Shown here: positions 26,880 to 54,274 of the stretch, in pieces
Layout: each line of letters starts with the position of its first letter
How positions within the stretch are numbered: the first letter of the stretch is position 1
Source: Leucoraja erinacea
Lineage: Eukaryota
Assembly: GCF_028641065.1 (NCBI RefSeq)
Contig: NC_073378.1
Span: forward strand, 108,252,001-108,316,000
Direction of reading: 5' to 3'
DNA length: 64,000 bases
The notes under the pieces: generated by a model
What the model was told of the DNA's origin: nothing
Database searches by the model: none
The model's input: only the letters and a program-made list of their open reading frames with translations
Made by a program: the position numbers and the translations under genes

Positions 26880-27070
26880 TGTTTTTCATGCCGTAGTCTC
26901 TCATATGGTAGACAAGGGCCATCTCCAATGGTGCACTCACTCAGTATCACAAAAGTTACTACTCTTGGATGGGCAATGATAAATTATCGGCCAGGATCCC
27001 TATTCCCACTCTACAGACATGGTCATTGCTGCAAATGAAGAGTACCATGCCTGGAGCTTAGTAACAAGAT
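26880..27070 (-). CDS. Link/fibrinogen-like gene: domain 2, exon d (heavily frameshifted; 3' boundary approximate)
   Basis: ctacag| acceptor. Fragments SNDHV-RV, LADN-SLPIQ, APLEMA and RLR parallel ANDVVW...LPVQEVRFGDTHDLPIEMAFHRIGPLRC of domain 1. Confidence 0.6.
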
Positions 27071-29294
27071 CTGTAGCGCATAAAAAAACCCATAAATGAT
27101 ACACCAGATCAACTTGGTATATTCTTCCGACCTCAACCACCAGTGTTATACACCTAGAAGGATCTTAGCTCTTTATGACAAATCATTATCCCGCTGATCA
27201 CATACCTATGGAGCACTTCAAAAAAATTCCCCTCTTAACTTCAGTTACTAATTACGTTCTTACCTCTAGAATACTTTTAAACTACACCCTAAACTAACAT
27301 TCATGGAACAATAGCTCTGAATCTCGAAAGTTCACTGTAACTCGGTACCCATTGCAAAACTATACCTGAGCTCATGCAAGCCTGTTCCTTCAATAGGTTT
27401 CATGTTAATATCACAAAGAGAAAAATAGTATGTGGATCGTCCTCACCTATTTCTATTTAGTAATAGTTAACTTCCAGGTTTAATATGCTTTCTTCCCTCC
27501 TGAAAGCTCCAAATTGATTATCAGATGAATGTTTGGAGGGAATTTTGCATCGAACATAACCTGGCCTCAGGTGCGGGCTCAGTTTGGCCTCTTATCAGTG
27601 AGAGAGGGACTGACACATAGAGCTCTCGTTTCCAAGCAGGGGCAAGTCCTTTATAAAAATATACCGTTGCTTTTAGCAAAGATTTGCCAAACATTCAGAT
27701 ATTGTTATATTCCCAAAGACACACATGTTCCACATGTGAATTGTACTCCTTTGAAAGATTCACTATTGATCACTATTTAACCTCTGGTGCCCCTTGTCAG
27801 TGGAGTGGCGGTTCAATCCCTACCCCTATCCACAGGTCCTCCACCAGCCCCGCCTGACGGCACTCTACCTCCACATTCTATCTGTCCCGTCCCTACTCCC
27901 CTACCATCACGTCTGCAGAGTGGGTTTACGAAAAATTAATAAAATACTTTTAATGACCTACATTAATAACATTTATGCAAGGAATCTGTGAAACCACACA
28001 AAACGATTACTATTTCTGTACGGAAGCCCCAGAAGGGAAAACATTAAGTCACCAGGAGGGCAGGAATGCTATTCAAATAAAATTAACTTGTCTTATTTAT
28101 CTTTATTTATTTAAATATAAGGCATATTTCAGCTGCAAAGTTAGACTGATGAGCTTGCAACGCCGCTTTTCCCTTGAACCCAACAGATATTTTGAGGAGC
28201 ACATGACCCGAGGGCCAGTTTAGCTGGAGTTAGATAGAGGATCACGGTTTCCTAAGAGTACATGGAACAACACAAAATAAAGTCATAAGGAATAGAAGCT
28301 AGACAGCAATTAGGATATTCGGATCCCATTACAAGTTTCTACTCCGCTCATTCATCATGGCTGATTTTCTCCCTCCTAAACCCCCTCCACCCAATAACTA
28401 CCTCCGACACCTGTACTATCAAGAATCTGTCTCTGCCTTAAAAATATCATCCACAGCCTTCTGTGGCACAGGCTTCCAAGAGATTCACCCTCATTTTAAT
28501 TTTATAAGAGTACATACAGTGGTATCGTTTTACAGGTTCCAACAATTATGTGAACACATACACTTGGCTCTGTACAACTTTTTTTTTTTTTTTTTTTTTA
28601 AAGAGAGAAATAAGAAAGAAGAGACTGAAGATAAAAGGATACTTAGAGGAAAGTCTAGCGCAGCTGTGTGGAGTTCTAACAAGGAGGAAAAAAGAGATAT
28701 TGGGGGAAAATAAATGAATAGACAATTTGAAAAGGAAGCAGGAAGATAGCAAATCGTTCGCAAGGAGAGGGAGTGATTTTAATTATTGAAATATTTCGCC
28801 AATACCTGATTTCCCCACCCTCTGACTAAAGAAAGGTCTCCTCATCCTCCTTCCTAAAAGGATGGCCTTTATTCTGGGGGTATGACCTCTTAGCCTACGA
28901 CTCCCACATGTGGAAGCATCCTCTCGACATCCACTCTATCAATGTCTTTCACTATTCTGTATGTCTCAATGTGTCCCCCTTTATTCGTCTAAACACCAGG
29001 GTGAGTACATTAGTGGCCCAGTGACGGACAAACGCTCATCATAAGGAACCAATGGGAGCAAAGATTGAAACAATTGGGGACAAAAAGTTTAGGGCGTGCA
29101 ACATTACCGGGTTGTTTTTTTTAAACCAGAGAGTCATTTATGATCTGGAATTCACTGAGGATGGGGATGAGGGAAAACCAAAATCAACAGTGACGTGATG
29201 AAAACACTATAGGCAGAAAAAAAGGGTTCCCCATGGGTTGGAGAGAAGAGATAAGTTCAGGTTAACGAACCAAGTATTTGGCTGAGTCTGGCGC

Positions 29295-29422
29295 CTGTCA
29301 TTCCACAAGCACAAGCGTCCACTGTTGGAGGGTTGCACCTCCCTAGTGAAACATTCGCTTCCCACCCACGATGTCAACAGCCCCAGCCGGCTTGTATGAA
29401 GCGAATGTGGCGGACAGTCCAA
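29295..29422 (-). CDS. Link/fibrinogen-like gene: domain 2, exon c (frameshifted)
   Basis: gtacag|TTG GAC TGT. Reconstructs as LDCRHIRFIQAGWG..TSW.GKRMFH.GGAT.NSGR.CACGMTG (Caspr-type WGG...CACG). Confidence 0.75.
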
Positions 29423-29849
29423 CTGTACGTACACAATAGGAAATGTTTGGTCAGAGCAGCCAACAGCCATAAGCTTAATTAGCCCCAGTCTTTTTTTTTT
29501 TTCCCATGCTCAGTGTTAGTATTTCACAGTGTGATACAGTAGTTGGATTACCATCTGGGAAACATGTCAGGACAGGCAGGAAAAACACCAAAATCTGCCA
29601 CAATTCGCTAATGATTCTAAGACCCCTACCCACAAAATCCAAAATCTTGCTCAAGAATTAACGAACTGCAGTACAGGAAGAATAGCGAAAAACAATAGCA
29701 GGGATATTTGGCAAAATACTCAAGGTCAGCTAATATGTGAGAAAGAAGATTAATAGGTCAGTTTTCTACCCACTGCCACCTGATTTTTTGAATACTTTAG
29801 ATTTCAAAAGTAATAGGGGTTTTGTTCCCATTACCTAACAGGGGGTCAG

Positions 29850-30250
29850 ATCAGATTCAAACGTTATTGTCCATTGTGCAGTGTACAGTACAGAAGAGAG
29901 ACAACGAAATACAGTTAGCATCTACCCAGAAGAGCGAACATAGAATAATGAGCAATAAATATATATACGTAATACAGTCGTAGTTAGTAGTGCAATTTTT
30001 CTGGGGAAAGGGAGTGTCCGGGGGAGGGGGCGTGATGGCAATCACCGAGTTTTGGTACAGAGTTAAGTAATGTAACAGCCCGCAGGAAGAAGCTGTGTTC
30101 CTGGAACCTGCTGGCCCGGCAACGGAAAGAGGACCTGTAGCGACCTCCCGGATGGTAGGAGGGTAAACAGACTGTGTGGGAGGGTGAGAGTAGTCCTGAC
30201 GATGGCTCCACTGCGCGCCCTTCGCAGACAACGCTTTGCTATGGACAGAC
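29850..30250 (-). mobile_element. Rex1/Babar-like LINE 3' fragment
   Basis: HSLFTLLPSGR, SFFLRAVTLLN and a (gaatct)-like tail at about 29850. Confidence 0.7.
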
Positions 30251-30836
30251 TCAGTATTTTGTGGAAATACTTAATTGCCACAGTTGCAAAGATAGAGTGG
30301 TGGCTGAACAGGATCTAGTTTCTCCTGACTGTTGATGGTCGCACACAAACAACCTTATTAGTTTCCATATTTATTTTGAATTGGAACAAGCTATGCTTGT
30401 TTTTTAATCTTATTGAGAAATCAGAGTTAACTGCCAAACCCTATTAGGTGCCAGGGAGATTTGTGAGAGAGGGAAAAAAAACGGGGTTACTGGGGGGAAA
30501 ATTAGACAAATCAGACCATGATCAAAAATAATTAAATTGGGCGCTGAAAAACTATTAGAGAACCGATTGGAGGAAAATTCCTTTTTCCAGTCAGAGTTCG
30601 AGGGAATCAGAAGAATCGAAGGCCTAGACACGGAGTAATTAGTCAAATGTGTTCAGAAAAGTTTCCTCAAGCAATATGGAGAGGGGCTCTACAAGGGAGG
30701 AGACCCAAAGCTCGATTCTACTCTAGGAAATTGGGATTGACAAATGATGTCAGTGGCGAGCCTTTGGCGTCCAGTCACCACTTGTTCTATGTATTAAAAT
30801 AATTCAGTTAATTAAGTCCCTTGTCTGGTATCTCAC

Positions 30837-31001
30837 CTTCACAGAATACTTGTTCACAGGAGTCCGAAATAAGCGTCAGGGCATTTCAACTGGATCAGTT
30901 CTGCAGCATATTTGATCTTCCTGCTGTAACAGCAGCCCTGTCCCTCACAGGGGGCAACTCGTATGCGTCCTTCACTGTCATGGCCCACCACCGTTTTAGA
31001 G
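30837..31001 (-). CDS. Link/fibrinogen-like gene: domain 2, exon b (frameshifted)
   Basis: gtgcag|...AAG|gtgaga. Reads TVVGHDSEGRIRVAPCEGQGC-YSRKIKYAAELIQL-ALTLISDSCEQ-VK (Caspr-type TVVxHD...CEQ). Confidence 0.8.
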
Positions 31002-31438
31002 CTGCACCGACACATGACAGTCAGTGCCTCACCAAAAAACTCAAGGATATAATTGCATAAGTATTTTTGCGCGAGTCATTTTTGACTCTCTGCCCAGATG
31101 GAGTGTTTTAATGAAATTGTAGATCATTTAAATAATCCAGGGGATTTCCATTGATTTCGTGTCAGCCGATACGAGATAAAATTATTGTTTAAATTAATGG
31201 CCGATCGATCTTAGCAAATTTGTGTTTAGATATTAAACCCATGCTTTTTTTAGATCGAATGGTTGATCCAAGATTTTCAACGAAAGAGGAGAGTACAGAT
31301 GATGCGATTCATTAGAATGGTCTGTGCCTCTACCGGACTTTCTGTGCCCATGGTTTTGCTAGGCAACTCTTGAACATAATAGTAAGATTTGATTTATCTC
31401 AGTTTAAGATTAAGTATTTGCAAATAATACCAATTAAC

Positions 31439-31602
31439 CCACTGATGGAGGAGATGTCATGTCACAGAAGACTTGAAACTCCCTTGAATCCTGTTCCAAC
31501 TCCATCTGGATCAATGACATAGTGAACCCTGACAGCTTGGAATCCTGCCTCCTTCAAGGCGGTTGGGTGGCACATGGACTCCAGCACCGGCACAAGAGGA
31601 AC
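31439..31602 (-). CDS. Link/fibrinogen-like gene: domain 2, exon a (frameshifted)
   Basis: tttgcag|...GTG G|gttaat. Reads VPVLES..LKEAGFQ..G.YVIDPDGVGTG..EFQVFCDMTSPPSV (IDPDG...VxCDM signature). Confidence 0.82.
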
Positions 31603-31699
31603 CTGCAAACCACAGTCCCCCAAAACCCAACAGCGTCACCAAATCCCTGCAGGCCAGTTATCAGGTTGACTGGATCTACAAATTAATGCCATTGTTAGT

Positions 31700-31955
31700 T
31701 CTATATGTTTTTCACCCAGAGAGTTGTGAATACTGTTGAGATCTCTGCCCCACAGAAGGCAGTGGAGGCCAATTCACCTGGATTGGTATTCAAGAGAGAA
31801 TTAGATATAGCTTTTAGGGCTAACGGAATCAAGGGATATGGGAGAGGAAGTGGAATGGGGTACTGCCATTTTGGATGATCAGCCATGGATATTGAATGGC
31901 CGGTTGCTGTGCGTGGAAGGGCCGAATGCCTACTATTGCACCTATTGTCTATGTA
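31700..31955 (+). mobile_element. CR1 3' fragment
   Basis: ttcacccagagagttgtgaat...gatcagccatg...ctattgtctatgt, the same family as 63270-63670. Confidence 0.7.
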
Positions 31956-32539
31956 TCTCATTAAATTAGCAAAAACAGAATTATCAGCTGCCACATCTCT
32001 GCCATTAATCAGGTTTGCAAACTGGTCGGCAATAACATGTCAAAGGATTTGCATGTTTAATAAACTGTTCAGTGTACCAGTAAAAGAACAGGCCCAATCG
32101 GCCCATAAGTTTGTGTTTCGAACGATGGATGGGCCCAAGTACCAACTCTTTACTGCATGCACCGCAAATATCCCATATCCCTCACCCATTCTCCTGCATA
32201 TCCCATATGGTGTCCCTGCATATCCATACAATTACATGGGATACAGGGGCACAAGCTGTGCGAACGGTGGAACTAGTTAGGGCGACACCCGGGAGAGATG
32301 GTGGAGGGGAAAAGCCTGAATGCAGGAGTTACGTTGAAATTAGCGACAAATCAAAGGGTAGACACAAAAAGCGCTAGAGTAACTCAGCAGGTCAGACAGC
32401 ATCTTGGAGGAAAGGAGAAACAGGAATAGGTGATGTTTCTGTTGAGAAACCTATCATTCATACCACTTGGTTGTAAGCTGCACAAGAAAAATATGTGGTG
32501 CTGTTCCTCCAATTTGAATGTGGCCTCACTCTGGCCCCT

Positions 32540-33150
32540 CTTACCTTAAACCTTTGTCCTCTATTTCTTGATTCTCCCAATCTGGGGGAAGGACTGCATT
32601 AAATTTCTCTCATGATTCTTGTACACCTCTGTAAGATCACCCCTCAGCCTCCTGTGTTCCAAGATAATAAAAGTCCTAGCCTGCCCCGCTTTTCCCCATG
32701 GCTCGGCCCTTGAGTCCCCCGGCAACATTTCATCATTCATTTTCAAAGCCAGCCTTCTCAGTTTCATGACATTTCTTCCTACAGCACCTGTAGTGATCAA
32801 AACAGTACTACAATACTGCAAATGTGGCCTCACCAACGTCATGTACAACCATAACGTAACATATTATACTGACTTACTGATTGCCAATGTACCAATACCT
32901 TCGTAACCCCTATCTACCCGTGACGTCACTTTCAGGGAACTATGTCCCTCTATTCCAAGATCCTTCTGCTCTCAACACTCCCTAGGGCACTGCCATTCAG
33001 TGTGAAGATTCCTGCCTTGGTTTGACTTACCAAATACAACACCTCATGTTATCTGCATTTTAAACTTCATCGCCTTTCCTCAGCCCACTTGCCCAGATGA
33101 TCAAGATCCTGCCAACATTTTTTAGATAAATCATCGTCACTTTCGTGACA
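32540..33150 (-). mobile_element. Degraded CR1 RT C-terminal fragment
   Basis: YMTLVRPHLQYC and LEHRRLRGDLTEVYK. Confidence 0.7.
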
Positions 33151-33259
33151 TCACCTACTTTAGTGGTTTTGACTAGAAAAAAAAAGAACATAATCTCCAT
33201 ACTAATTTCTCATAACTATGCTTTTATCCAAATCACAATTAAGTGCCCTGCATTGTCAC

Positions 33260-33416
33260 CTTCGTATATGCTTGGCTGGCCTTTTGAATATTGATTCCAT
33301 GCAAGGGACGGGACCAGGCTCTTTCCAAATACCATTTTGTACACCATCCCAGGAGTCCCAATTGCTTGTGTCTCACATGTTTTCACCTCTTTCAAAAGCC
33401 GCCCCTCTTGCATGTA
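33260..33416 (-). CDS. Candidate linker exon between the two fibrinogen-like domains
   Basis: ttttatag|...GAAG|gtgaca; Cys/Trp-containing fragments TCK and VQNGIWKEPGPVPCMESIF; no single open frame. Confidence 0.35.
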
Positions 33417-35294
33417 CTATAAAATAAGATCACCTATCACAATGCTTTCACCTCAGTTAAGAGAGAAACAAAAACAATGCATTTCTGGATTTTTTTTTTT
33501 TAAACTGTGAAAATAACAGCACTTGTGAGATGGGGAGAACAAAATAACTATTACTCCAGAAGCTAATGGAAAGTTCTTCCACGCGAAATGTTAACTCCTT
33601 TTCTCTCCCTACAGATGCACTTGACCTGTTTGTGTTCTTCTAACATTGTCAGTTTTTATTTCATTTTCTCCGTAAGAAGAAGATTGCTATCATGTGCTCC
33701 TCTCTACCTGAACGGTTTACTCCCTCCCCAAAAAATGGTCTCACTCCTGGTTACCCTCCTGGGCTCGTGGCCATTACGGAAGTTCTTATATTAGCCTTTC
33801 ACACTATGCTGGATGCTGGTCTTCTTCTAATTGTGATCAATCGCCTTCCGCTACCCCAATCTCACTTCACTAGTGCAACTCTCGATATTCTATCAGTCGG
33901 CAGGATCATGAGGTGCGGATCAGGGGGCAGGATCATCGGATGGCTCATCCTTTCCTTCTCCCATAGGTGTTACAAACTGTGACAACATTTGTGGCAATAG
34001 TCGAAAAGTGGCACCCTCGTTCGGTGGACACTCGAGCCCAACATTAATTATTAAAGCGATAAATTACAGATAGTGATACCAGAGTGCAACTGAGTTACCG
34101 CCCGTAAATGAGTTGTCTCTTCGGAATATATAATCATTTTTGTTCTGAGAAATCGGGTGTAAAATTACCTTGTTACCTCAGTTCTATCATGAGTACTCCA
34201 AACTTTTCGGAGAAAGAAAAGGGCCTGTCACACGGGCATTTGCGCGCCATTTGTTCGACATCGTTGCCTGCCATCTTGGGCGTGGGTTTGAATGTTTCCG
34301 GTAGCATGGGTGCGCCATTGGTAGAGCTGTTGTGGGTAGGCAGTGCGTTGGTTTTGTGGCGCAGGTGTACTCTGTGGTCGCATGTTGAGTTGTAGTGTGG
34401 CTGCGAGTGGTCGTACGCAGTCGTTGCCCTAGGACCTGGCGATGCTGCATCGCGCTAATCTTGTGTTACGCAGCGTCGCCAGGAAGTTTCGTGCTGTACG
34501 AATGTGCACATTGCATCGTGGTTGCGCCACAGCCTGTCATGTAAATGATGAATGGCCATCAGTGGGACAGGGTGACGTTCGGGCGGGGAAAATCGAAGGG
34601 GTGACGTTTTTCGACGTCATACCGGGCAAGGCCCTTCTTCAGACTGAAACATAATCCATTCATTCCTCCAGAGATGCTTGCCGGGTCCTGCCTAGTCTGT
34701 GTTACTCATGCATTTTGTGTCTTTCTTCAATTTAAAACCAGTCATCTGCAGTTCCTGCCCATCAGATTAATTTGGTCATGCAGCGTGACTACTTTTCACT
34801 TCAACTCTTTTCTTGATTATAAGGGCATTAATTCTGCAGTTGCTGTCCAATGCTAGCCCCACCAATCAAGCAAAACTGCCACCGAACCTTAGAAAATCAC
34901 AATAAAATAATCATAAACTGGGTTAAAATATCATAAACTAGCTGGTATTCAAATATCGTAAGCGTCCAGCGAGCTGTTGGGTGCTCAGGGGTGACGTTTG
35001 CAATGGACCGCACTGATAGAAGCCGACCACGTCGCACTGTCACGCAGCGTCAGTCCTATTACCGGCCTAGTCACGTAAATGACGGCCATAGGTGGACAGG
35101 CCCTAAAGGATCTAAAAATAATGTAATTGCCATGGTAGCCCAAAGATAACCAACAAATAGCCTATAACGTGTTTAAATAGGAAGTAAACACAGAAGCCAA
35201 TTAAAACTGCAGTCTTTTTTGCATATCTTCTTGTTCGTTATCTCAGCTATATCACCATCTGATTTCTCTAATTCCCTTCCCCCTGACTCTCAGT

Positions 35295-35322
35295 CTGAAG
35301 AAGGGTCTCAACCCGAAACGTA
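35295..35322 (+). ncRNA. Minimal hammerhead ribozyme core in a Penelope-like terminus
   Basis: CTGAAGA-A-GGGT-CTCA-ACCC-GAAAC-GTA gives CUGANGA, stem II, GAAA, palindromic ACGT and an NUH site. Confidence 0.6.
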
Positions 35323-36957
35323 CCCTACTCCTCTCTCCAGAGATGCTGTCTGTCCCGCAGAGTTATACTCTCCACTTTTTCGTCTATCCCCAGCTTCCAG
35401 CTCTGTTCATTTCACTACTGACGCAAGACAAAAACTCGGAACAGATACAGTGCCTGGAAATCTGGAGCTAGAGGATTGTGCTTGAAAAAGGTACATGATT
35501 TGGAAAAAAAATTGATTCAATTCAAACAAAATATCATTGCATAAAATCTTTTGATAGTATGCAATACTAAACATAAAGAAAACAGAGAAGAGAAAGGCCT
35601 GCTGATCATATTTTTCAGATTATTACTACTTGAAACTAATTCAAGGCATCCGGGGATACTTGTCTTTCTTGTCTAGTCAGGGAGTTGAATACAGAAGTGA
35701 GAGGTTTACGCTCCAACTTTATAAAACCTTGGTCAGACCTCAGCTAGAGCATTGATGCTGCTCTGATCACCAATTTATAGGCAAGATGCATTAATGTTGG
35801 AGATTCATCAAAATATTACCTGCGATGGAGCATTTTAATCAGTAGGGAGAGATTAAACATAGAAACATAGAATTAGGTGCAGGAGCAGGCCATCGGCCCT
35901 TTCGAGCCTGCACACGCCATTCAATATGATCATGGCTTGATCATTCCAACTCCAGTATCCCGCTACCTCCTTCTGTCTCATACCCCCGGATCCCCTTAGC
36001 ACAAGGGCCACATCTAACTCCCTCTTTTAAATATAGCCAATGAACTGGCCTCAGAGATTAGGTCATGTTCTCCCAGGAGCAGGAGGTTAAGTGGGGACAT
36101 AATTGAGGAGTATAAAATGGCGAGATATAAAAAACACCCAGGTGATCAATTGTCCGAGTACACAGGTTCCAGGATCGCTTCCAGTCACGAGATCACAGTG
36201 AATGGGATTTGCATGCAATAATCAACAGTGTGCTGAGTGTTCGTAGGAAGTCCAGGATGTGTGTTCTCTGTCTGTGTATTTACAGGTACTCCGGGAAACC
36301 GGTAAGCCTGGTAAGCTCGGGAAGAGGCCTTCGTGAAGATAGACTTTTCAAACGTTTTTCTCAAAAATGTCCACGAGAGCCCCGTGTTACCTGCGACGCG
36401 GCCATTACAGTAAATCTCCAAGTTCGAATCAGGGCAAACTCAGGAGAATCTCTTGAATGAACTCGTACAGTGGGACAGGGCTTAAGGCTCTATGATCCCC
36501 AAGTCCAAGACTTTCCCACAGTCCCGGAAACATCCTCTCCACATCCATCTGTATCCAAGCCCTTCACTATTCGGTAATTTTCAATGAGCCGTCGTCCCCC
36601 TCATCTTTCTAAACTACCGTGAGTACAGGCCCAGGTGCCTCAACACACTTGTTTTGACATGGGGTCCCCTAACAGTAGCAAGTTTCGCTATGGGCATGTG
36701 AAGCCCCCCCTCTTCTGCGGGATATGCCGAGAGGGCTATGGACCAAGCACTGGTAAATGGGATAAAATCGTTTGGATGCGTCGCTGCCCCGTGATTATCT
36801 CTAATAGTCAGCTAACACCACTTCCTCTTACTAATCATATTTATTCAATATTATTACTTAACATGTCACGTTGAATTGCAGTCTAGTTCAACAAACTTGA
36901 AACGATCTGCTTGGATTAAAAAAAAGTCCACCCATTTGTTTTCCAAGAAAACCTTAC

Positions 36958-37150
36958 TCTGTTCCCAAAAACAACGAAGTGGACCAATCCTGTGAAATGC
37001 CATCTCAATTGGTAAATCGTGTGTGTCTCCAAACCTCACTTCCTGCACAGGAAGAACGGTTTTGTGCCCTCAGATGTCCTTCGTCTTGCTCCAAACAACA
37101 TCATTTGCATCACAATTGCAGGTGGAAAAAAGACCAAGAAGCACAGGTGC
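36958..37150 (-). CDS. Link/fibrinogen-like gene: domain 1, exon d (frameshifted)
   Basis: ccacag|GC ACC TGT...|gtaagg. Reads GTCAS...TCNCDANDVVW.QDEGHLR.KTVLPVQEVRFGDTHDLPIEMAFHRIGPLRCF, matching Caspr-type CNCDA...LPV...GDT...PLRC. Confidence 0.85.
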
Positions 37151-37905
37151 CTGTGGTGGAGAAAGGAAAAATATGTTGGGGCTTGTCTTAATGCATCAAA
37201 TATTAGAAACATTGTTCCTATTCATAACATTTCGGATTTATACATACATTAATTACTAACTATAATTTACCAGCTGACTGTCATTATTATCTCATAAATC
37301 TTTTACAGATCATACAATCACAGTTTTAAACAAATTCAACAGAGTTTTCATACTGCCTCAAGAGAAAGATAGCATTGTTTGCGGTTTTGGTTTTGCTGCC
37401 ATTTGCAACTTTCAGTCTGCTCCAAGGCTCAGAATCCCACCACACACTGGTCACATTTTTATTTAAGACAATATTATATCATGGCTGCCAGAGGCTTACA
37501 GGAGCTTATAACCCCTTACAAACAATATTTTAGAGACGGATTTTCCCCATCGCAGGTCCCCCTGGATTGGTCCTGATGTATCATGAATCATACTCATCTT
37601 CTAATATTATTTGAGAACCAAATAGCATGTTTTGGGTGTTGGGGGAAGGCCAGGAGAGCAATGGAGAATGAAGAGGTCTTAAGAGGCAGAGATAGCATCG
37701 ATTTCAGCATGAATGATCATGAATGGTTAGACTTGATGGGCCGAACTGGCCCTAATTCTACTCCTATTCCTTAAGAGTCATTTTTAAGCCTGTTGTCATT
37801 TAAGAAAAAATGAAAACAAGAAGGGAACGTCATGGTTCCAGACATTCACACAAAGAGGATGGAATTTTCTGTTTTTTTTTAATATGATTATCCTATAGCT
37901 CTTAC

Positions 37906-38047
37906 CACTTGTTTCCACATGCCACATTTTCCACTGTTAGTTGAAAGCTCCAACCCCAAGAGTTTATTTTACGTCCATCCTTTGACACCCACCAACCACA
38001 GGTGTCCCCGAGGAAGGAAGCGGATAATTGTGCGAGACGACTCCAAC
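37906..38047 (-). CDS. Link/fibrinogen-like gene: domain 1, exon c (frameshifted)
   Basis: Reads LE.R.IRFL..TCGWWVSKDGRKINSWG-GA-STNSGKC-ACG-TSG with donor G|gtaaga; the acceptor is corrupted. Confidence 0.8.
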
Positions 38048-42426: not shown

Positions 42427-44559
42427 CTAATGTGTGTAACATTTTTTTATCAAAGTAAGATGTGAGGAATATCTTGTAACCTCCAGTCTTTAGTCAAAAA
42501 AAGTCATCATTTAAGTGCTCCACTGTTTGGTTTGCACCATGGTCTGTTGCGATTTTCATAGTTTGGAGCATTGTATATTCCCTACTGTTTTTCTACAGGA
42601 TACAGTAGTCACTGACTCACTTCCAGAGTTATACGCACAGATTATGGCATACCATGTTTGCCGCAGAATGAACAACCCCTCGCTTCACATTCATTGTGAT
42701 TTTAAGGTCTGAAGGGGGGGGGGGGGGAGGGCTGATTGAGTTTAATAGCGAAATGAGGGGTTAGTTTTTCTTCCACCCACAAGGTGTGGGTTATGCAACG
42801 ATGCCTGTCAGACGAGACGTGGTGGGCCTGTTGTATCACGTGACAGTGTTTAAGTAACATTTAGACAAGTACTTGAATTGCCCGGACCAGACTTTCAGAC
42901 GGAATTATGGACCAATAAAATGCAGGCCAGGTGGGACTAGTATAGAACGGGCGCGGCCAGTGTGGGCACAAATTTGGACCGGCCTGCAACGGTCTGCTTG
43001 CCACAATGTAAATCTATGCTTTATTTAATTACATTGTCACAACGCTGATCTGAATACAGTCACGTGGGAAGGAGGAACACCAGTCTTGGCATATAACAGA
43101 GGGAATAAATAGATACATAGAAATTTAAAACGACTAGCTACCGTGGGCTGCCCACACTGCAAGCACACTATTTGGTACTTGAGTTATTTCGCTACTGCCA
43201 CGTTAGGACACAGAGGATACAGTTACCAGCGATATTGCTGCAACTGCAAATTGGACATCAGATTTCCCGGGTTACTATCTCACATATAAGGCCTCATATT
43301 TGGGTGAGAGTGCGTGTTTTCTTGCCCCTTTGCTGCACATGCATCAGAACCCTGTTAACACATACCCAAACCAGGCGCAGTGGTGTCACTTGAGACACTA
43401 CCAATGCTTTTAACAGCTCGCTAATGTCCCGTGGATCTCACTTTGACATGGAGGGAAGTGTAAGTTGGCTCTGTCCCGACTTGCGGCCGTCATTTGCGCG
43501 TTGTTCACGCATTTGGTGCGACGTGTGAGGTGAGATTTTGATGAATCCCAAACACTCCTGGGGCACCGCCACTGCCGTGAACGCGCAACTCGTCTGTCAT
43601 ACGCAACCTACGCTGTCTCACCACACTAGACCTATACATTAGAAAAAGGTGCCAGAGTTAGTGATGGCCATTCGGCCGTGCGGTGTACTCGCTGCATCGC
43701 GCATTTTGCTAATATGATCAGGGCCCCCCCCGATGATCATCCAAATCAATAGCAATGATACTTGCCGCCTCCTCTCCCATATACCCCCTGATCCCTTTAG
43801 CCATCAAGCGGGGCCAATATACATACCTCTCGCTCTTTAATATCCAGCAAAGGAATGAATGGCCCTCAACTACTACTTCGGTTTCTTCTGGCAGAGGATT
43901 TACACACGAGTCACAACACTCTCTGTGTAAAAAAAAATAAAAATTCGTTGTGATTTTCCTCCCATCCTCGGTATCCTACACAAGTTTCATACCTTGATCC
44001 TTAAACTGCTGACACCCTTGTTCACATTGAGCCATTGCTGCGCCGTGGTAATGCAACGACCCTGTGTAAGCTATCACGTGCGTGTGTGCATCGTGACGCT
44101 AAATGATCTCGCGTAAATGAACGCGAAAAGGACGCCAAGATGCGTGTCCGCGACTTCAGTTTGCAATTGGGTACGTAAACTACCCAAAATTAGTTTACAT
44201 GCCAGTGATAGTCATGGGTGTCGGATCCGATGCACAGGAAATTGCCGTCCCAAAAACACACAGTGACCACAGTGGCGTAAGTAGTTAGAGTGCCTGCTGC
44301 ATACAGTGACTGGAGAACCAGGGGAAAGATTGACGGCTTATTCGCTTACGGAGTTTGCACATTCTTAGTGACCCCCACGGACCGGTTTTCCTCCGGGAGC
44401 TCCGGTTCGTTACCACACAAAAAGTGTATGGATTGCGTAGGTAGGTTAATTGGCTCTCGTGTGAATACCCTAAGTGCTGTAGGATAGGGAGGCTGTACAG
44501 GCGTTGATCGCTGGCTAGCCAACTGTTGGACATCGGCTTGCGGTTGGTACGAATGCCTA

Positions 44560-45110
44560 CCGAGGCGCGCACATGATGATGAAAGAATGGTCTTATATTC
44601 AATGGATATTTAGAATGACTCTTTATAGGAAACATTATACACATATTTATTGCGGGAGAATCTTGTAGTAAAAATATCAGATTACCTTTCAGGAATTGAC
44701 ACAGGCTAGATGCAGGGTAAAATGTTCTCCTTGCTGCGTGAGAGGAGTCACAGAACCTGATCATCCGATGATGGATAAGCGGCTAGGCCATTTGGAATGA
44801 CGGCTGAGGAAAGACTTATTCAACTTTAGAGGGCTGCATGAAATCCATGAATTCTCCACCACAGAAGGGCATGTGGAGCGCCCAATTCACCCTGGATGTA
44901 TTCATGAGAGAGTTAGTGATATACGCTTTAAGAGGCTAACGCAGAAATATAGGGATATGGCGGAGAACACGTCCAGGAAAGCGTCGGTACGTGTTTTTTC
45001 TGGATATCTGCCCGATCAAATCAGCACGCATAGTATGAATGTCGGTGCTGGCTTTCGACAGACCGGCTGACATGGACTACTCATAGACACCTATTTCTTC
45101 TATGTTTCTA
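44560..45110 (+). mobile_element. Heavily degraded CR1 3' fragment
   Basis: gacacaggctagatgcaggg...gagagagttag...acctatttcttctatgtttcta. Confidence 0.55.
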
Positions 45111-48100
45111 GGCTGCTATCACTTACTACAACTAAATGCCACAGCACCACACTAACCACAATCCACATCAAAACTGTGTGGAGAGATCGAAGGTGCAAAC
45201 TGGCCCAGAGAGTAGCAAGGTTCTCTACCCCCCCCAGTGTGGACGACAAGCATGACCAATAGATGAGTTCAATTAACTTAACAATAAATCTATAGACGCG
45301 TTGGTCAGATAACCAATCCAGACATGCTCCGGTTTTATCCAGCAGTAAGAGGTTGAAGGAGGAGGATTTCAATTGCTTTTCGAATACAGCAAGAAAATGA
45401 CTTTACCAACTTGGTAACTGAATATAATGCTTCCTGCATCTTGGTTTAGCTCAATTAGTGTGGTTAACTCGCCCCTTACCTGGATATTTATGGAAATGGA
45501 AAACTCACGGTACGACAGCCTCATAGGTGGGATTAAGAATAATAACTGTGGTAAATTACAAACAAGAGGCGTGGAAGAAATTTCTCCTTTTACTTTTAGG
45601 TAAAAATCCGTCCTGTCAACTGTGTCCACCCCATGAGTCCGTTTAAGCTCCTTTGTATGTTTCATGTGGACACGTGGTGATGACAGATGAGAACTGGGTT
45701 CCAAACACGATATTGTGAAATATTGGCTCTGCACCACCCAGTCAGTCCATGTACCGATCCAGAAGAACTTTCCGTTGAGTGTGTAATATATGGATATGTG
45801 TTCGAGAGGGACTACCAGGGCCATAGATGACCTCCGCTTCAGCACGGTTGCCATTGCACAGGTCTCTCTTTTCCTTTTAACGTTCCAACGTCCTGCACCG
45901 TCACCTCACTTCCCTATCTACTTTAATCTACGCGAGTGCCTGTTGAATCTCAAGCCCCACTTCCCCTCCCTTTTGAAAAACCCCCCCCCGCCACTATGGA
46001 GATACTGCCGGAGTACATGACATTCTGTGCAAATCGCCGAAGTGACCGTACCCTGTAGCTGATATGTTCCTGCGTATTAGTTTTACCCGACAATTGATCC
46101 TTTTGTTTCCAACAGCCTAGTCTTATCCCTCCCCTGCCATTACATTCTGACGTCCCGCTCTGCTCTCAGTTGCTTACCTTTCTTTCCCGTTTACCTTCCT
46201 TCGCGGCCCCCTTGATTGATAATCCCCATTACCCGTTTTTTCACTCCCTTTCGCGTCCTAACTCCCCTTCGATGCTTACCTCGCGTGGACACGTGTGTGG
46301 GTAGTGTATGCCCGTGTCACAATACTTGTTGTTTACCCGCTAGTCTGCGGAGAAGGCCCCACGTCATTGTACCTTTGAGCCCGCGCGCGGGTAATGGCCG
46401 CTCAGTTCAGATGAAAGACTGCGCGATTGTTTCTCTTTCCCAGCGCTGTATTTTCTGACCTTCTGAATTTTCCCACCACACCCAAACGGCTGTTGTTTAT
46501 TATCCTCGATTTGCCCAAATCCTACCTAAGTTTGGATGGTTTTTTTGGTTTTCCATTGCATTATTTTGGGTGTGCACCTGGACTATTCTAAGTTCCACCG
46601 GTTTAGTTTCCGAGGTATAGCCCTGCCAAACAGCCGTTGCTCAGTTTATCACGCTACACAATGACCAGCATATATCCTGGTCCGACGATCATGCTGGAGA
46701 AACTCAGAGGGTGTTTTTTGCAGCATCTCTGGAGCGCAGGGACACGGCTGTTGGGTCGACACTTCCCTACATTTTATATCATTGCCGCATATCTTATCGG
46801 ACCCCTCCATCGTTTGAAGCAGGGTTTCTCGATTTCCCAACGGAACCATTCCCTCCAGAGAGGGGGCCTCGCCCTTGGTTATGTTATCAGCTTTGTGGCT
46901 CTATCCGGGGTGGTTCACAGTAAACATGCAGTCCTATCTAACCTATCTTATTTACCTTGTAGCATATAGCGGGTCGGCGCCCTAGTTGGCGCCACACTCC
47001 AACCACATACACAACCTTCCAGCTACGGCACCGTCTATGGGTCCTATGTCTTGTCTTCCGCCCCATTTGTCCCTACAGATCCAAATTCTTATACGCCCCA
47101 TGGCTATATACATAGTCTGGCCTCTCTCAATACCGCCGATCTATCTGGCCTATTAGTTTTATACAGTAGCAGGGCCAGAAACTGCCGGCACACTACTAGT
47201 CATGCTAACGCGCTGTGGCCCTTAGTCTAGCCCAACAGCCGAGAATTCAATCAGCGGTGTGGAGAGCTGTGCCCCCATGCTTCCCTTCTGTAGGGTTCAC
47301 AGAGCTGGATGTAAGTGCTTTGCCCCGTTGCTGCCTGAGACCACAGTCTAGGTCCCGTGTCGAGTCGCTACGCAGCGCTGCTCCTACGCGTGGATTGATC
47401 TCCGTCGCCATCGTGGTGTCGCCAGATTTATCGGTCCCCAGTCATCTATCTGCTCCCCCCCTTGCCCCGCACAGCCATACTATTTTAGTCTGCGGCACAA
47501 CCATGTTTTTGTCGAACTCAATCAGCTCCTACTCTCCAGAATACCTCCCTATATTTTGTCCTGTTTAGTTTCCGCCCACAGGCAAACACAATGCTTTGTG
47601 CGTCTTAATCATCTTCTTCATGTGGCATTGATCTTTGACGATCCGAACGCGAGAACCACACCATCAAGACACAGGCCTCTCGTTCCAGCCGATCAGCCCG
47701 CACAGTACTTCCCCCCCCGGTAAACAGCCCTCCGATCTCGTATCCTCTCTTTTGCAACTTTATTCGCATTCGATTTCTTCAATTCCCCTCACATGGCGTT
47801 CTACCCGCATGGACCCAGGCCTTCAGCACCCCCCTGCCTGCTCCGTGCCCACAATCCTGCTCATCTTATACCCGTATCTTTTGGGAGTCTGTTGACTGGC
47901 TTCCATGTCCTCGCCTGTCCCCAAGGTTTGTCCCCAGGGGTGTGAGTTCCGCTCCTGACTATTCCTCTGCCCGGTATCCTCCTACAATTTCCATCTAGCT
48001 GTAGGTCTTCCTCGCTGCCAACACCCATCAGTTGTTGTTCCATGGGGTCGCCTGCGTTTCTGCCAGGTAATACATTGATTGACTTGCTATACCCCCATAG

Positions 48101-51100
48101 CCACCTACGCTGTTGCGGTCTACAATCCTTCCGTGGTTCAATGAGCTGCTGCATCTGACAGACATCTGCACTCGTGGGATTTTACACGGCGCGGTTTAGG
48201 TTATGTTGCGCTGCCCCCCCTGTGTGGCGCCCACGCTTATGTGTATGAACTATTCATGTCGCAGTGGTTCTTTTGAATTTCTCACTCCCGGTACTAGCCC
48301 ATTGTTCGATGGCGTGGGGTTCCCCCCCAAACTGTTTCGATATGTAGGGCAGCCGTGCTTGCGCGTTGTGCTTCTTCCCTATCTACGCAAGAGAGATGGT
48401 ATGTAGAATTACTCAATTTCGTCATCATACTGTGTGCCATGACGACAAAAGCGTCACTCGCCCTAACACGCCCTATTTCGTGTTGTAACCCTTCTATCTT
48501 TTGCGTGATTGCCTACGTACCCTCTTTTTAAGCGAGTTATAGACTCCCAGTGCGGCATCCCAAGTCCCGTGGTCACAACGCCCTCGCCTTTTTTGTGTGT
48601 GTGTTTTGTGGGGAACCCCCCGACACCAAAACATAGTCGTCCCATGTTCATGTCTGTGGATCTCGAATGTACACAAGATTTAGATCAACTCCAGCTCGCC
48701 GCGCACACCGCTCATAGCTTCGCGGCGCTTCCTCTCGGTGCGGCTGTCCACTGGGTGGGTAGGATTGTGGACTAGTGTGGTGTCTGCTGCTCCCTAAAGA
48801 CTTGTGTAGCTTACAAGCCCTGACATCTTGGAAGCAGCGCCTGAGCTGGTCCTAGGGGGCGCTTTGTGCGCCCACTTCACCCCGGGATTTATGTTTATAC
48901 CTACCCTTGTCCCTTCCAACCTGTGTACGGAGCATTACACTGGCAAAATATTTTCCTATGGTCCATTAACACGATTACTTTTATAGTTCCTTTTTTCTAA
49001 CATCTGAATTCCATTTGGTCTGTATCGTACCCAGCATTTTATTCCTTGCGCTTATGGCTAATCCGTTCATCCATCTAGTTTCCCCTGCGAGAACACACTA
49101 CCCCGTATCCCCCCCCCCCCGCATTGTTTTCGCTGCAGCTCTATTGTTTTTTGTTAGCGCCGATGACCATTCGTTTCACCAGTCTTAGCGGGGCTTGCTT
49201 TTGCTCCCTCCCCTCTCTGCTTATTAATTTTCTTCCCTGTGTTCGCTCCGTTCCTGTTCCGACTTGCACCTTCTCCTATTTCCCTTCCAACAGCTGAACC
49301 CACACGGGACGTCTACAACCAATCCCCCTATCCAGTCCCTCACATGTATCACGAGTATCCGGCATTTTTGGTGTGTCCCAACTCACAGACGATCTTCTAT
49401 CTTTTCCCGTCGTCTAATGCCCGAAGGGTTGCCCTGAATGGACATTCGTCCTATGTTACTTCGTCAGCTGCTGTCTCCCTTTGGCCCCTTACTCCTACCC
49501 TTGTGTGTTGTAGGTTTGCTTTGGTCCCCGCGTGGGCCATTTCGCTAGACCCGCCCCCCCAAACGCCTGCTTGCATTACGCCCCTCCCCTTCACCTCATT
49601 CTGACCTTTTTGCACCCCTTAATCCCTGCATGTTCACTCCTGGTGGGATGTCCCGCTCTTTTTTAGTTCTATGCTCTGGCTTCCTGGGTCACAGTCCCGT
49701 GAATTATGGTCCGTTTACTCGCGTACGCGCGCCGCTGGCACCACCCGCCTCTGGCCCAAGGTCATGGGCTTTTTTTTGATCCCTTGTCCTCTTTTTTAAT
49801 TCTCTACCCCTCCTCTACACTCGGGCATTTACGCCCACTCCTAATTAGATCCTTATTTATCTGTGAGTGGGGGCCTTATGGAGACACACTCCCGCCAACC
49901 TTTTTTTTTTAGTCCCGGGAGAATGTGCCCCCTCCCCCCCTGTCATGGAAACCGCTAGGCTTTGGGGCTCTGTCTTTCTCGTTCTGTGCCGAGTTTCCCG
50001 GACTACTCTCTCATCACCTAGTTGTCTGTGGTATTATACCGCACGGAACACCGCCTCCATGGCCTGCTCCCTGACTACGGACTGGATTGTTTACCCACGC
50101 TTTACCGCCCTTTGACGTTTTGTTTTCGCTGTTTTGTGTAATCCTGTGTTGTTTCGCTTTCCGCAGATCATTTAGCATTTTATTTTTCTCGCAATGGCGT
50201 GGGCACCGCTCGCCCCCACCGACAAAGTTCCCCTACATTTAGTTGTTGCTGCGCGTGATATTTAGAGCTTAATCCGACTTGTCTCTCTCTCACCCTTTGC
50301 CACGCAACACCACACGAGAGTCGCCCCCGGCCGCTGACCTCCACACATTATTCGACTCAAAGGGCTATCCACCTCCCTCTACCATCTAATGTGCTCAGGT
50401 TTTAACCAGAATGGACACGTGACAGCTAGGAGATTGACATCGCTTCTCCATGACGCAACCAAGACAGGGGACAGGAAGTGAATTTACAAAGACGCTTCCT
50501 AAAACCTCACGCAAACAGTGAGAGGTTTTTAGTGATCTTTAGTTCACCGGATCCCCCGACCGTTGTATACATCGCCCGGCCTTTCAGCCCTAGGGCGGCA
50601 TGAGTCAGGCGTATCGGATGATCAGAGGTTTCTTTCGAATTTACCCGAAAATCGGGTAGACCCCCGCCCCCCCCTCACGTCACCTGTGTGGTGGGTATGT
50701 GAGCGGATGTAAGGGGGGTGTGTGCGGGGTGAGCCCGTCACCACGCATTCGGTGTGGTCTGCGCGCGCGCAGGTGGGTTGTAGATGGGCCCGTGAGGCAG
50801 ATGTGCCTACGTGAGGGTGCACTCGTATAGCGTGCGTGTGCCCGGTGACATGTGCGGTCTTCGGTACAGACCATTGTGCCCGGGCAGGTGCGGGCTGTGT
50901 GCATGTCTGGTTTGGGGTTCATGGTGGTATGTGTCGTGGTATGTGTATGCGCGCATGTGTGTGTTGTATTTGAGCTGTGCGAATGCTGTTGTGCTGTATC
51001 GGTGTGCAGGCGCTGCGCTGGGAGAGTGTCAATCACGCGCAGACAGCACTTCACACAGCGTAGGGCAAGTGCTAGGACAGTCTCAGCTGTCAAATGTGTG

Positions 51101-53299
51101 TGAACGCGAGCCGCGGGTATGGTACTCGGTGTTGTGTCCTGTGTGTCCGTGCGTGTGGTGTCACATGTGGTCATAATAGCCAACTAAATAACAGATGGTT
51201 AGCGTGGACCTTTTGACGACATGTTGTGATAGAAGCAGTTGCCCGCGATTGTTAGGTTCAAAAGCTGTCTAATAAATTGTTGTTTGTTGTCCGCTGGCTA
51301 GGAACACGCTGTCATCAGTTGTGCGACTTTTGCGTCTTGCGGGGTTGTTGAGTTTGTATGTGATGGCGTGTCTTTGTACGTATCCCGACGAAGAAGAAAG
51401 ACACCCCAGTTTAGAGACGAAAGGTTCTAGCTTGGTCCGCGGAGGGGAAAGTTTGACCAATCCAAGAATTAATCCACTCCCATCTGACCCGCACCAGAGG
51501 TAACTATTATCCAGCTGAGGTCGGGATCGCTTATGCAGGTCAGATGTGTTAAGTGCATAATAGAGCATTACCATGCGATTCTATACACCCTTCCTCACCC
51601 CGATGCCAATAACAAAATTTTTCCCATCCCTGACTAGAACAAGGGCGCCCGATGGACCCTGTGTCTGTAGAGTGCACAGCCCCCGAGCGGAGGTTTTATC
51701 GACTTCGACGCACAGGATCGGGTGCGTGATTTAATTGTCCCGCTTCCTCCGCGACCCAACTTTTGCGGTCGGCTGGTGGTGTCTAGGCGATGTGTGCTCC
51801 AGCAAAACGGTTCCCTACCGTGGGTCAGGATGTGTGCGTACGGACGCTTCGCGGCGAGTCCTTGGGGGTTTGGAGAGCCCCCGGGGCGCTAGCCTTCCAA
51901 GTCCTGTAAAAATAGAAGCAGTTTAAATAGCCAATGACCCGGTGGGCGCTCTAGTCAGGATGATAGTAATCATGGAACCTTGCCCCCCCCCCTGTATCAC
52001 AGTTTCTGTTCTTACCCTGCGTCTCAGACCTGTGTGACCAGAATCTATTCTCCCCTTAATCTGTACCTTGTGCTCCTGCGCAGTTAGCCCGTGTCAGGTT
52101 AATGCCGAAGACAATCTCTGTGGTGCGAGACGTCTGACAGGTACAATACAGCTGTCTTGTTTGGAGTTTCCGATCTTCAAGTAACTCTCGGCTTTTTTTT
52201 TTAGCCGGGATGAACATGGTTTCAAAGCCCAGGACGCCTGTCCCACCCCTGCCCCAGTTTTGCGGCCGACTCACTCTTACCTAGTAAGCCGCGTTCCCCC
52301 CCCCTCCAGACCAGGCCTCCGCTCCCGCGCGCGCTGGGCGCGCCTCCCGCAACCCCGCTGCCTTCCGGGTCCCCTCCCCATTCCCGTCCTCATGGGGTTT
52401 GCCGGGGGCCCGCTCTCGGCTTGCGCTCAATCTTGGTAATGACCTGTCGCACCTGTCAGGGGTGGCTGAACCCAGGCCGCGTTTCTGAGAGCGTGCCACG
52501 CGTGGTTCCTCGACACTGCATTCATCCCCACATGACATAGCCCACCATTCCTCTAACTCCGCGACACCGCTGGCTTGTGTTCCCGCCAGTGTCACCGCCA
52601 TTGCCCGCAACTCCTTTTGCCTAACCCGGGAACCACTTTACCGCGACGCCCAGGGATACAAAGTTTTGGCGTGGAATTCTGTTGGCGAGACAATAACGAT
52701 ATACAGTCCGCAACACACAGGGAAACTAGTCCCTCCAAGTACAATAAAAGCCGAGGTGGTGCGTGTTCGCGTGTCATGGGGTTCCCATGTAGGTGTAATT
52801 CTGGCCTATTTCTCCTCTATCGTAGTCAGAGGATTTCTATCCGTTTTTTCTGTATTCTTTCTTTCCTGAGCTCTATGGTAAGTCTGCTCTTTTCCTTTGG
52901 GGGGTTCTCTTCCTCCAATCTGATGTTTTTTGTGCGATTCTCATCTTTTACCCTGGCTTGTTTGTCGTTATGGGCTTCTCTCTGGTCGATCTCTCTCTCC
53001 TCCTTTTGTTCATTCACGCCTTTCACTCTTCCTTTTCCTCGACACCTCTCTCATTCTCCCCACATCTCTCTTCCCTTCATTCGTCTATTCTTTACCTTTC
53101 TTCTTATCCTTCGCACTCCTTCCCTTATCCTCTTCTCTCTTCCTTTATTTTTCTTGTTAACATTATCCCCTCTCCCTCAACCTCCTCCTTCCACTTTCCA
53201 TCCCCCATCCACTCTCCCTCTCAATCTACTGTCATCTTTCTCCTCCACGCTATCTCTTATTCCGCTATATTACCCTCCCCCTCGTTTTTCCCATAATTT

Positions 53300-54274
53300 G
53301 TTTTTCTTCTGGGTCTTCTCTATACGCACTCCCCAGAGAGTTGGGTTTAGCAGATTCAAGGCCAGCAGTTGGGATAACAACCCCAACATGTTTTTGCTGA
53401 TTAAAATAACCTTGAGAAGGTCTAATACCTTCATCTCCTGCATCATTATTGATTGTAGAGGTTGTAAATCCATCCACAGGCACATTCCAAATATGCAACA
53501 ACTCTGCAGCAGAAGATGTCGATGAATTTCTTATCACTTCAGTTTGGTTTTCATTTTTAGTCCCACTTGTATCAAAAGCTGCAGTAACTTTGCCTTTTTC
53601 TTCAGTCTCTAATGAATGCTTACAATTTGAACATTTATCAGAGTTCTCAATGTGCAATGGTTCCTTACTGCTCTCTGCTTCCAGACTGTTGATGTGAAAA
53701 GCAGTTGACGATTTTACAGATAGGACAGAGGTTGATGTGTCCGTGCTATATAGATGTGTACTGTGCTCACTCTGATACAATGGTTTTGCTATATTGGAAA
53801 ACTGAACATTTATATCTTTCTGTGTCTTGATCTGTTTTGGTTTAGGCATTTCTTGTTTCTTGGAAACATTCTTCCTTGAGGAAGCTAATGTTCTGAGCAG
53901 TGACATGTTCACTGATTTGCTGTTTAAAATGTTGTCTTCCAGTTGTAGCAATTTATTATAATTAGAGCAGTCATCATCAGGTTTATAACAATACACATCC
54001 CATTTTTCCTGCAGGTTTTTTTTGACACCATATGATATTATGCCTACTTTGTTTAGGCCACATTTCCAGCTTCTGTGAATCCTCGGATAACCTACTTCTC
54101 CTGACAACAGCCAGCCTGCCCTGCACTCCTCTAGACCAGAAAGGCAAGCGGTATGAAGTTGATCCCTAGTTGCCATCACAGCTCCAAAGCTTTGTTCACA
54201 AGCCAGTTTGGCAGCAGGAAAAGTCAAAGAATAACGATTCTGCCGATCATAATGAAACACGCCACTCACACGCC
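53300..54274 (-). CDS. Exon encoding a Link (hyaluronan-binding-type) module plus Ser/Thr-rich stalk; 3' boundary lost in low-quality sequence
   Basis: cctttcctgcag|GG CGT (phase 1). GVFHYDRQNRYSLTFPAAKLACEQ..AVMATRDQL...LEECRAGWL..GEVGYP...KCG..KVGIISYG...EKWDVYCY is a full Link consensus, most like TSG-6 by recall, followed by over 200 aa of open low-complexity frame. Confidence 0.9.

Follow-up and report, generated by a model that had tools for sequence, protein, structure and literature searches.

The 64,000-nucleotide stretch of the skate Leucoraja erinacea analyzed here (NC_073378.1, positions 108,252,001 to 108,316,000; hereafter the window) carries on its minus strand one copy of a gene whose intact second copy encodes, in order, a signal peptide, a Link module, a Ser/Thr stalk of about 800 amino acids, a CUB domain, an SRCR domain, and two domains of the Caspr type. 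The gene was observed directly as a chain of exons with an open frame, in the splicing of exons 2 to 6, and in orthologs with conserved residues. By domain its product is a member of the Link superfamily, and it falls in none of the named subfamilies. We give a probability of roughly 60% to the reading that this product would be a secreted bridge in the matrix, with the Link module holding hyaluronan, the stalk acting as a spacer, and a calcium-loaded head binding a protein partner. An original prediction, made from the letters of the window alone, had proposed nine collinear minus-strand exons for a single extracellular protein with a Link module, a Ser/Thr stalk, and two Caspr-type domains, in an architecture unlike that of any characterized gene. 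All nine exons were recovered in order by motif scans in six frames and by translation, the predicted positions 37,150 and 31,602 proved to be exact acceptors, and the single protein is borne out by the intact copy, by orthologs, and by a spliced contig. The order of Link, stalk, and two Caspr-type domains also stood, but the list was incomplete, having missed the CUB and SRCR domains and the signal-peptide exon. No characterized gene matched in protein searches.

The intact copy (G000:C2:108,195,159 to 108,165,648, minus strand, in the skate assembly G000) lies 115 kb upstream of the window copy and has 14 exons; all 13 introns are GT-AG, and its 4,761 bp specify 1,586 amino acids with a single stop at the end. 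The encoded protein is 97.8% identical over 1,424 aligned residues to the uncharacterized Amblyraja radiata protein XP_032898788, a model that is without 162 of the stalk residues. Exons 7 to 14 are the eight Caspr-type exons of the original prediction, and exons 3 to 6 (CUB and SRCR) project onto the part of the window that had been described as unreadable. No C-terminal hydrophobic segment or membrane anchor was found in the 12 proteins scanned.

Transcripts were sought by comparing four sequencing runs with 10 kb of the gene, beginning late in exon 2 and reaching exon 7; runs X1 and X2 come from one study of a related skate, with no tissue given. One X2 contig (record 10, 5,582 nt) holds exons 6, 5, 4, and 3 and the end of exon 2 consecutively with the introns removed, and a single X2 contig, equal in depth (17.2), includes exon 7. 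Spliced sequence is present from stalk through CUB to SRCR and, by matching depth, likely extends to exon 7, the first Caspr-type exon. In length the X2 contig could accommodate the complete coding sequence with about 800 nt to spare, a size compatible with inclusion of exons 1 and 8 to 14. In run X1, exons 4 and 5 are joined in a 2,395-nt contig, and X3 and X4 gave fragments only. In the spliced contig exon 4 ends at a later donor, which lengthens the segment from CUB to SRCR by 7 residues, as in isoform X1 of Amblyraja.

Some observations weigh against a single gene. The joint between exons 6 and 7 comes from equal depth and is not a listed piece of the contig, exons 1 and 8 to 14 lie outside the segment compared, and the X2 run is labeled "RNA? 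(probably DNA)", though its contig is spliced; no run was recorded as RNA among the matching sequencing runs. Public annotations also split the gene in two in Callorhinchus (P0032 and P0031), Rhincodon (P0007 and P0040), Rhinoderma (P0018 and P0036), and Pristis (P0273 and P0118). It is nevertheless extremely improbable that the Link-stalk and Caspr-type exons are two separate genes, as such split models would have it, given the one contig that joins stalk, CUB, and SRCR and likely reaches exon 7, exons 7 to 14 that are without a signal peptide of their own and are all spliced in phase, the 22 full-length models in 20 species, and a Callorhinchus split that lies within domain 1. The exons form one real, spliced gene that is ancient in vertebrates.

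The state of the window copy was examined by comparison with this intact gene. The window exons align to it exon by exon, and also to public proteins, so a chance origin was dismissed. The Link exon, present twice in the assembly in copies 115 kb apart and 99% alike, begins in the window at 54,274, directly after TTCCTGCAG, a clean acceptor; in the clean copy, this exon 2 measures 2,760 bp, is fully open, and is shared by Link and stalk. All eight Caspr-type exons of the window carry small indels (5 to 30 each), with frame shifts or stops within their motifs, and the window copy is therefore not readable through. The gene starts at 58,469, beyond the range originally given. The supposedly unreadable stretch at 43-53 kb is a garbled copy (60-75% identity) of DNA with four further exons, two for CUB and two for SRCR (at ~48.6-48.8, 47.3-47.4, 47.0-47.1, and 45.8-46.0 kb). 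Noise at 49,973-53,333 stands where the remainder of exon 2 and some of intron 2, about 4.2 kb in the clean copy, would be expected. A transposon insertion in 43-53 kb was considered and rejected; the stretch is collinear with the clean copy up to ~49,970, and no long match was found elsewhere. A public 365-amino-acid skate model, P0023, tracks the window copy (53,268-54,290 and 58,377-58,469); its last ~23 residues are drawn from the noise stretch, with its end in 53,334-53,268, and this truncated model is likely an artifact.

Self-alignment of 264 kb showed that window-extended positions 20,116-123,842 repeat -92,361 to 20,015, and that both ends of the repeat are edges of a scaffold gap. 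Between 20,116 and 41,347, extra-base events number 37-82 per kb in the window vs 7-31 in its partner, with a transition/transversion ratio of 0.24-0.65; left of the gap the pattern is mirrored and the other contig is the decayed one. Farther from the gap the rate drops to 1-2 events per kb and the ratio is 0.9-2.2. Identity between the copies is 60-75% at 40-50 kb, is lost at 50-53.3 kb, and rises abruptly to 98% at 53,334. Insertion-biased, transversion-rich noise at contig ends is a hallmark of unpolished single long reads. Because of this, the frameshifts in the window are likely sequencing read errors, and the window copy is likely a raw-read-grade false duplicate of the intact copy; the whole overlap likely represents two haplotypes. 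Against this stands the divergence of 1-3% between the copies in their polished parts, along with indels of up to 4.4 kb, which is much for two haplotypes.

The same differences, which include several large indels, and the very presence of two copies 115 kb apart in the assembly would be expected if the window held a true tandem duplicate decayed to a pseudogene. We consider this improbable, however, because the decay forms a gradient around the scaffold gap on both sides and affects exons and introns alike, is insertion-biased with a transition/transversion ratio near 0.3, and is accompanied by near-identical doubling of the adjoining CHMP5-, BAG1-, and FASTKD3-like genes in the overlap. Searches of the skate's own genome found no third copy. 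If the copy is a false duplicate, as we think likely, this assembly holds a false duplication of ~105 kb that doubles at least four genes. Window positions 14,000-20,015 are likewise of raw-read grade (74-84% identity to the partner, insertion-biased) and include a C-rich repeat at 13,966-14,243.

The Link module scores 102.7 bits against Pfam Xlink (cut-off 27; E 1.3e-29). The core disulfide cysteines C55, C80, C101, and C125 are invariant. Across 29 aligned Link rows R43, Y44, C80, R81, Y92, C101, and Y111 are found in all 29, and position 114 is Arg or Lys in 29/29. These conserved positions align to K11, Y12, C47, Y59, C68, Y78, and R81 of TSG-6 and to R41, Y42, C77, and R78 of CD44. The hyaluronan-contact roles of the TSG-6 and CD44 residues are described in PMC3937638 and PMC5549728. 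The module thus likely retains most of the contact residues, and hyaluronan binding is predicted from its sequence. Other positions argue against binding: CD44 Y79, called vital in PMC5549728, is Ala in 29/29, and CD44 Y105 is Ile or Val. At TSG-6 H45 the new rows have Glu in 27/29, F70 is mostly Gln or Glu, and K63 varies. Some Link modules do not bind hyaluronan, and confidence in the structure model is low in the Link region (pLDDT below 50 at 78-117). Two flanking cysteines, at 24 in 24/29 rows and at 132 in 27/29, with C132 aligning to the EEDC of CD44, recall type B Links, and may be joined by a putative extra disulfide; the type B definition is that given in PMC6026378.

The skate assembly yielded 35 Link matches, which, with gene types assigned by reading of sequence, represent four lectican/HAPLN clusters, one TSG-6-type, two stabilin-type, two CD44/LYVE-1-type, and one SUSD5-type gene, plus the present locus. 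Phylogenetic analysis of the Link modules, in an alignment without Rhinoderma, placed the new rows in a group of their own (support 88/83 with lamprey), weakly sister to CD44/LYVE-1 (80/79; nested at 94/92 in the first tree). The second tree was built without the half-length SUSD5-type row.

The two Caspr-type domains of the head are 62% identical to each other and have 12 Cys each. They share the WWxG/WGG/CACG/CNCDA motifs of CNTNAP/Caspr/Neurexin IV, but the new protein differs from these in having two copies of the domain and no discoidin, LamG, EGF, or membrane segment. Its domains are also nearer to stand-alone invertebrate ones, being 47-54% identical to a stand-alone amphioxus domain (P0146) and 44-52% to coral-type ones, in contrast to 34-38% for skate CNTNAP-type exons, which lie at four other places, and 35-36% for the Caspr-like P0107. 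Contrary to the original expectation that this subtype normally occurs once, in CNTNAP, it is common both alone and in tandem in corals, amphioxus, hemichordates, starfish, and Lingula. The small coral and amphioxus proteins form a large, mostly unnamed family, with the domain alone or with Ig, lectin, or EGF, and are often weakly labeled COLFI; no Pfam family spans the whole domain.

The term fibrinogen-like, used for these domains in the original prediction, is also misplaced if the fold predictions are correct. In an AlphaFold model (mean pLDDT 70.8) the best fold match of the Caspr-type domain was the fibrillar procollagen C-propeptide 5k31 (Z 12.6, rmsd 6.1, 197 aligned residues), compared with Z 6.5 for the next unrelated fold and Z 5.7 for fibrinogen; Foldseek matched a C-propeptide at E 8e-7. 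A profile match to COLFI was found at E 4e-5, and the first Atlas match was COLFI (0.94, on 44% of members). Pfam Fibrinogen_C aligned only at profile positions ~2-54 of 221, in some orthologs and not in skate. The Caspr-type domain is therefore predicted to fold nearer to the procollagen C-propeptide than to fibrinogen. A sequence search of the PDB with a single protein gave no match for it. Unlike procollagens, the new protein has no collagen helix (Gly-X-Y), an SRCR domain precedes its domain 1, and it lacks the two Cys that, in the collagen segment, lie between the outermost aligned Cys residues. In the collagen C-propeptide those two Cys have an interchain role. A trimer prediction for domain 2 (three copies, no alignment) scored 0.00 and was uninformative either way. 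In the hemichordate protein P0236, SRCR repeats adjoin tandem Caspr-type domains and align over 28-535 of the shark query; the block of SRCR and two domains may predate vertebrates.

Between Link and head, the stalks of 22 proteins (a table without four rows) measure 376-1,030 amino acids with 22-29% Ser+Thr, almost no Cys, and 0-13 Ser-Gly sites each; the skate stalk has 23% Ser+Thr and 14 N-glycan sites. In a near-full AlphaFold model (pLDDT 64.5) the head domains are folded and the stalk is disordered. The CUB domain has the calcium-site residues E, D (+8), D (+41 further; +40 in one), and S in 27/27 sequences, with the spacing of Glu183/Asp191/Asp232/Ser234 of TSG-6, the calcium ligands named in PMC4661386. 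The modeled CUB fits 2wno at 1.1 Å, its sequence is nearer to cubilin and PCPE-1 than to TSG-6, and the C-terminal head is likely calcium-loaded.

In the matrix-bridge reading, the protein would be secreted, its Link module would hold hyaluronan, the glycosylated and extended stalk would serve as a spacer, and the head would bind calcium and a protein ligand. Such a protein would follow the working plan of lecticans, with a sugar-binding end, a long spacer, and a protein-binding end, built from other modules. Like aggrecan, versican, neurocan, and brevican, it has a Link end, a very large stalk exon, and a globular C-terminal head, and sturgeon and chimaera models are automatically named "versican core protein-like". 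It differs in having one Link and no Ig, EGF, C-type lectin, or CCP domain (Pfam scan of 13 proteins), and the lectican/HAPLN-type Links lie in their own clades at four other loci. With CD44 and LYVE-1 the protein shares a signal peptide, a Link with a flanking Cys pair in most rows, the R41/Y42/C77/R78/N100 equivalents, a PRIH motif, and a mucin stalk. Unlike them it has no membrane segment or tail, the Y79 and Y105 positions are not conserved, the chimaera and lamprey forms are without the extra Cys pair, and two CD44/LYVE-1-type genes are found separately on C18.

A fairly unlikely alternative is that the protein acts in mucosal or innate-immune pattern recognition in the manner of DMBT1, the head binding microbes and the Link binding another glycan or anchoring the protein in mucus or jelly. 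SRCR and CUB co-occur in DMBT1/hensin, which is secreted and has Ser/Thr-rich spacers, and SRCR stands with the same tandem domain in P0236; the stalk is mucin-like, the gene is found only in water-living or water-breeding vertebrates, and some hyaluronan-contact positions are altered. The new protein, however, has a Link, a single SRCR, and no ZP domain, the lamprey forms are without SRCR, and rodent DMBT1 matches were 35% identical over just 34% of the query. Across the family the residues of the Link groove do not vary, and the head keeps 58-79% identity between skate and frog, which would be slow change for a microbe-facing surface.

A TSG-6-like activity, in which Link and calcium-CUB catalyze transfer of inter-alpha-inhibitor heavy chains onto hyaluronan, is distinctly improbable. 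TSG-6 (TNFAIP6) is also secreted with one Link and one calcium-type CUB, its K11/Y12/Y59/Y78/R81 positions are conserved in the new Link, and the CUB Glu183 equivalent is present in 27/27. TSG-6 is also the best sequence match of the Link among PDB entries (1o7b, E 4.8e-22), the Link is 48% identical to that of the skate's TSG-6-type gene, and a clade of the new group with TSG-6 was not rejected (p-AU 0.077). In the trees, however, the TSG-6 row groups with stabilin-type rows (99/96), and the skate has a separate TSG-6-type locus on C7. The full stalk and then the SRCR and two further domains set the new protein apart, with only partial models (P0016 and P0122) joining Link directly to CUB; its Link lies in one exon, not two, and its CUB is nearer to other proteins. 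The position of TSG-6 Ser28, which according to PMC4661386 forms the heavy-chain ester, is Ser in 1/25 rows, a partial model, as read by eye.

Relatives of the gene were sought with the region from CUB to the end of the protein. Among 85 matches, 31 carry Link, CUB, and SRCR, and 22 of these (20 species) have at least 98% of the region from CUB to domain 2 in one chain at 58-100% identity. Full-length orthologs are found in chimaera, sharks, skate, sturgeon, paddlefish, reedfish, gar, bowfin, axolotl, and frogs, and further pieces come from eel, coelacanth, newt, and sawfish, those of eel being near-complete. Lamprey P0393 consists of signal peptide, Link, stalk, CUB, and one Caspr-type domain, which groups with domain 2 (93/90). 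Among public models, stalk length varies, P0008 being an 887-amino-acid shark isoform without most of the stalk, and so does the head, with Spea P0056 skipping domain 1 and lamprey P0393 without SRCR and domain 1; alternative splicing or stepwise assembly are possible explanations.

No amniote ortholog was found among the 85 matches, where the amniote rows, at 34% coverage, are of DMBT1 type and teleosts apart from eel show SRCR alone, and a search with a shorter protein gave no amniote in the best 120 of 172. Among the best 150 of 10,388 HMMER matches, five of the unlabeled ones with at least 48% identity were traced to their species and came from frog, sawfish, sturgeon, coelacanth, and anemone. 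Two protein searches for relatives gave no row from Xenopus, lungfish, or caecilian. We infer loss in amniotes and most teleosts because of this absence. It weighs against the inference that the amniote absence comes from word-seeded, length-limited searches of annotated proteins together with the best 150 HMMER matches. A role in electroreceptors only was considered and is unlikely, as gar, bowfin, eel, and frogs keep the gene. These animals are not known to have ampullary organs.

The gene is apparently unstudied but already stands in public databases as automatic models, so it is not hidden in the sense originally claimed: uncharacterized models exist in many species. Their names are "uncharacterized" or automatic, and labels such as "versican-like", "neurexin-4", "TSG6", and "mucin-5AC-like" are misleading. 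No paper on the gene was found in open PMC and bioRxiv main texts; supplements may list it. A lateral-line lead gave no match in the supplement of PMC5429088, and the supplement of PMC7720607 lists one "CNTNAP5" transcript common to both organs, which is not attributable to the present gene. About a dozen Link-module hyaluronan-binding proteins are known, all catalogued from mammals, according to PMC6026378. To these the present gene adds a Link protein with a domain order absent from the known ones, kept from lamprey to frog and seemingly lost twice. We tentatively suggest, while thinking it may well prove wrong, that it is an undescribed, pre-gnathostome Link member, a secreted cousin of CD44/LYVE-1 that would link hyaluronan to a collagen-type or basement-membrane network through its C-propeptide-like heads, in a gel matrix needed only by water-living vertebrates, with independent loss in amniotes and in most teleosts. 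For structural studies of the Caspr-type domain, which is predicted to have a C-propeptide fold, the gene also supplies a tandem form that is small and likely secreted.

Table 1. Features of the window copy and its surroundings (window positions unless a locus handle is given)
Feature	Position	Strand	Remark
Exon 1: start codon (ATG), hydrophobic signal peptide, and initial Cys of putative extra disulfide	58382..58469	-	agrees with clean copy at 85/88 bases, without indels; hydropathy peaks at residue 1
Exon 2, readable 5' third: whole Link module (53,985-54,263) and first ~215 aa of Ser/Thr stalk	53334..54274	-	
Noise stretch; remainder of exon 2 and some of intron 2 expected here	49973..53333	.	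no alignment to partner copy
Exon 3, garbled (CUB, first part)	48623..48826	-	147 matches in 187 aligned bases, 37 indels
Exon 4, garbled (CUB, second part)	47288..47441	-	weakest placement; backed by collinearity
Exon 5, garbled (SRCR, first part)	46956..47139	-	
Exon 6, garbled (SRCR, second part)	45815..45964	-	
Exon 7: Caspr-type (C-propeptide-like, predicted) domain 1, IDPDG/CDM part	42262..42430	-	19 indels
Exon 8: domain 1, GHD/CEQ part	38890..39081	-	21 indels
Exon 9: domain 1, WWVS/WGG/CACG part	37906..38046	-	11 indels
Exon 10: domain 1, CNCDA/LPV/GDT/LRC part	36958..37150	-	6 indels, one in-frame stop
Exon 11: domain 2, first part	31440..31602	-	9 indels
Exon 12: domain 2, second part	30837..31001	-	5 indels
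Exon 13: domain 2, third part	29295..29422	-	7 indels
Exon 14: domain 2, last part and stop	26832..27070	-	30 indels; no membrane anchor after
Scaffold gap, 100 N	20016..20115	.	both flanks decay to raw-read quality; flanking contigs overlap ~104-112 kb
Insertion-biased low-quality copy of G000:C2 ~108,159,640-108,190,065 (region of intact gene copy)	20116..53333	.	
Later exon 4 donor	L026:4442-4465 (G000:C2 ~108,183,341-108,183,364)		spliced contig
BAG1-like exon	L017:8628-8927		PDB E 9e-9; doubled
MTRR-like exon	L021:9276-9752		weak, E 0.16; outside overlap, single
NFX1-like exon	L003:4590-4922		zf-NF-X1; outside overlap, single

The gene sits between an NFX1-like gene and CHMP5-, BAG1-, FASTKD3-, and MTRR-like genes. 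The CHMP5-like gene, missed by a Snf7 family search and found with short motifs, starts at window 63,948 on the plus strand, head-to-head with the ATG of the present gene and 5.5 kb from it, and is doubled in the overlap. A 513-amino-acid open frame with a FAST_1 domain (FASTKD3-like) lies at window 10,726-12,264 on the minus strand and recurs, at 98.6% identity, at window-extended positions 115,440-116,978. NFX1, CHMP5, and BAG1 adjoin one another in mammals, and the human 200-kb region as listed in PMC7766421 shows no gene of the present kind; gene order and orientation in the skate differ from those in mammals. Repeat fragments with reverse-transcriptase motifs lie at window 7,504-8,584, 39,373-39,735, and 61,118-62,092 and are presumably of the LINE type.

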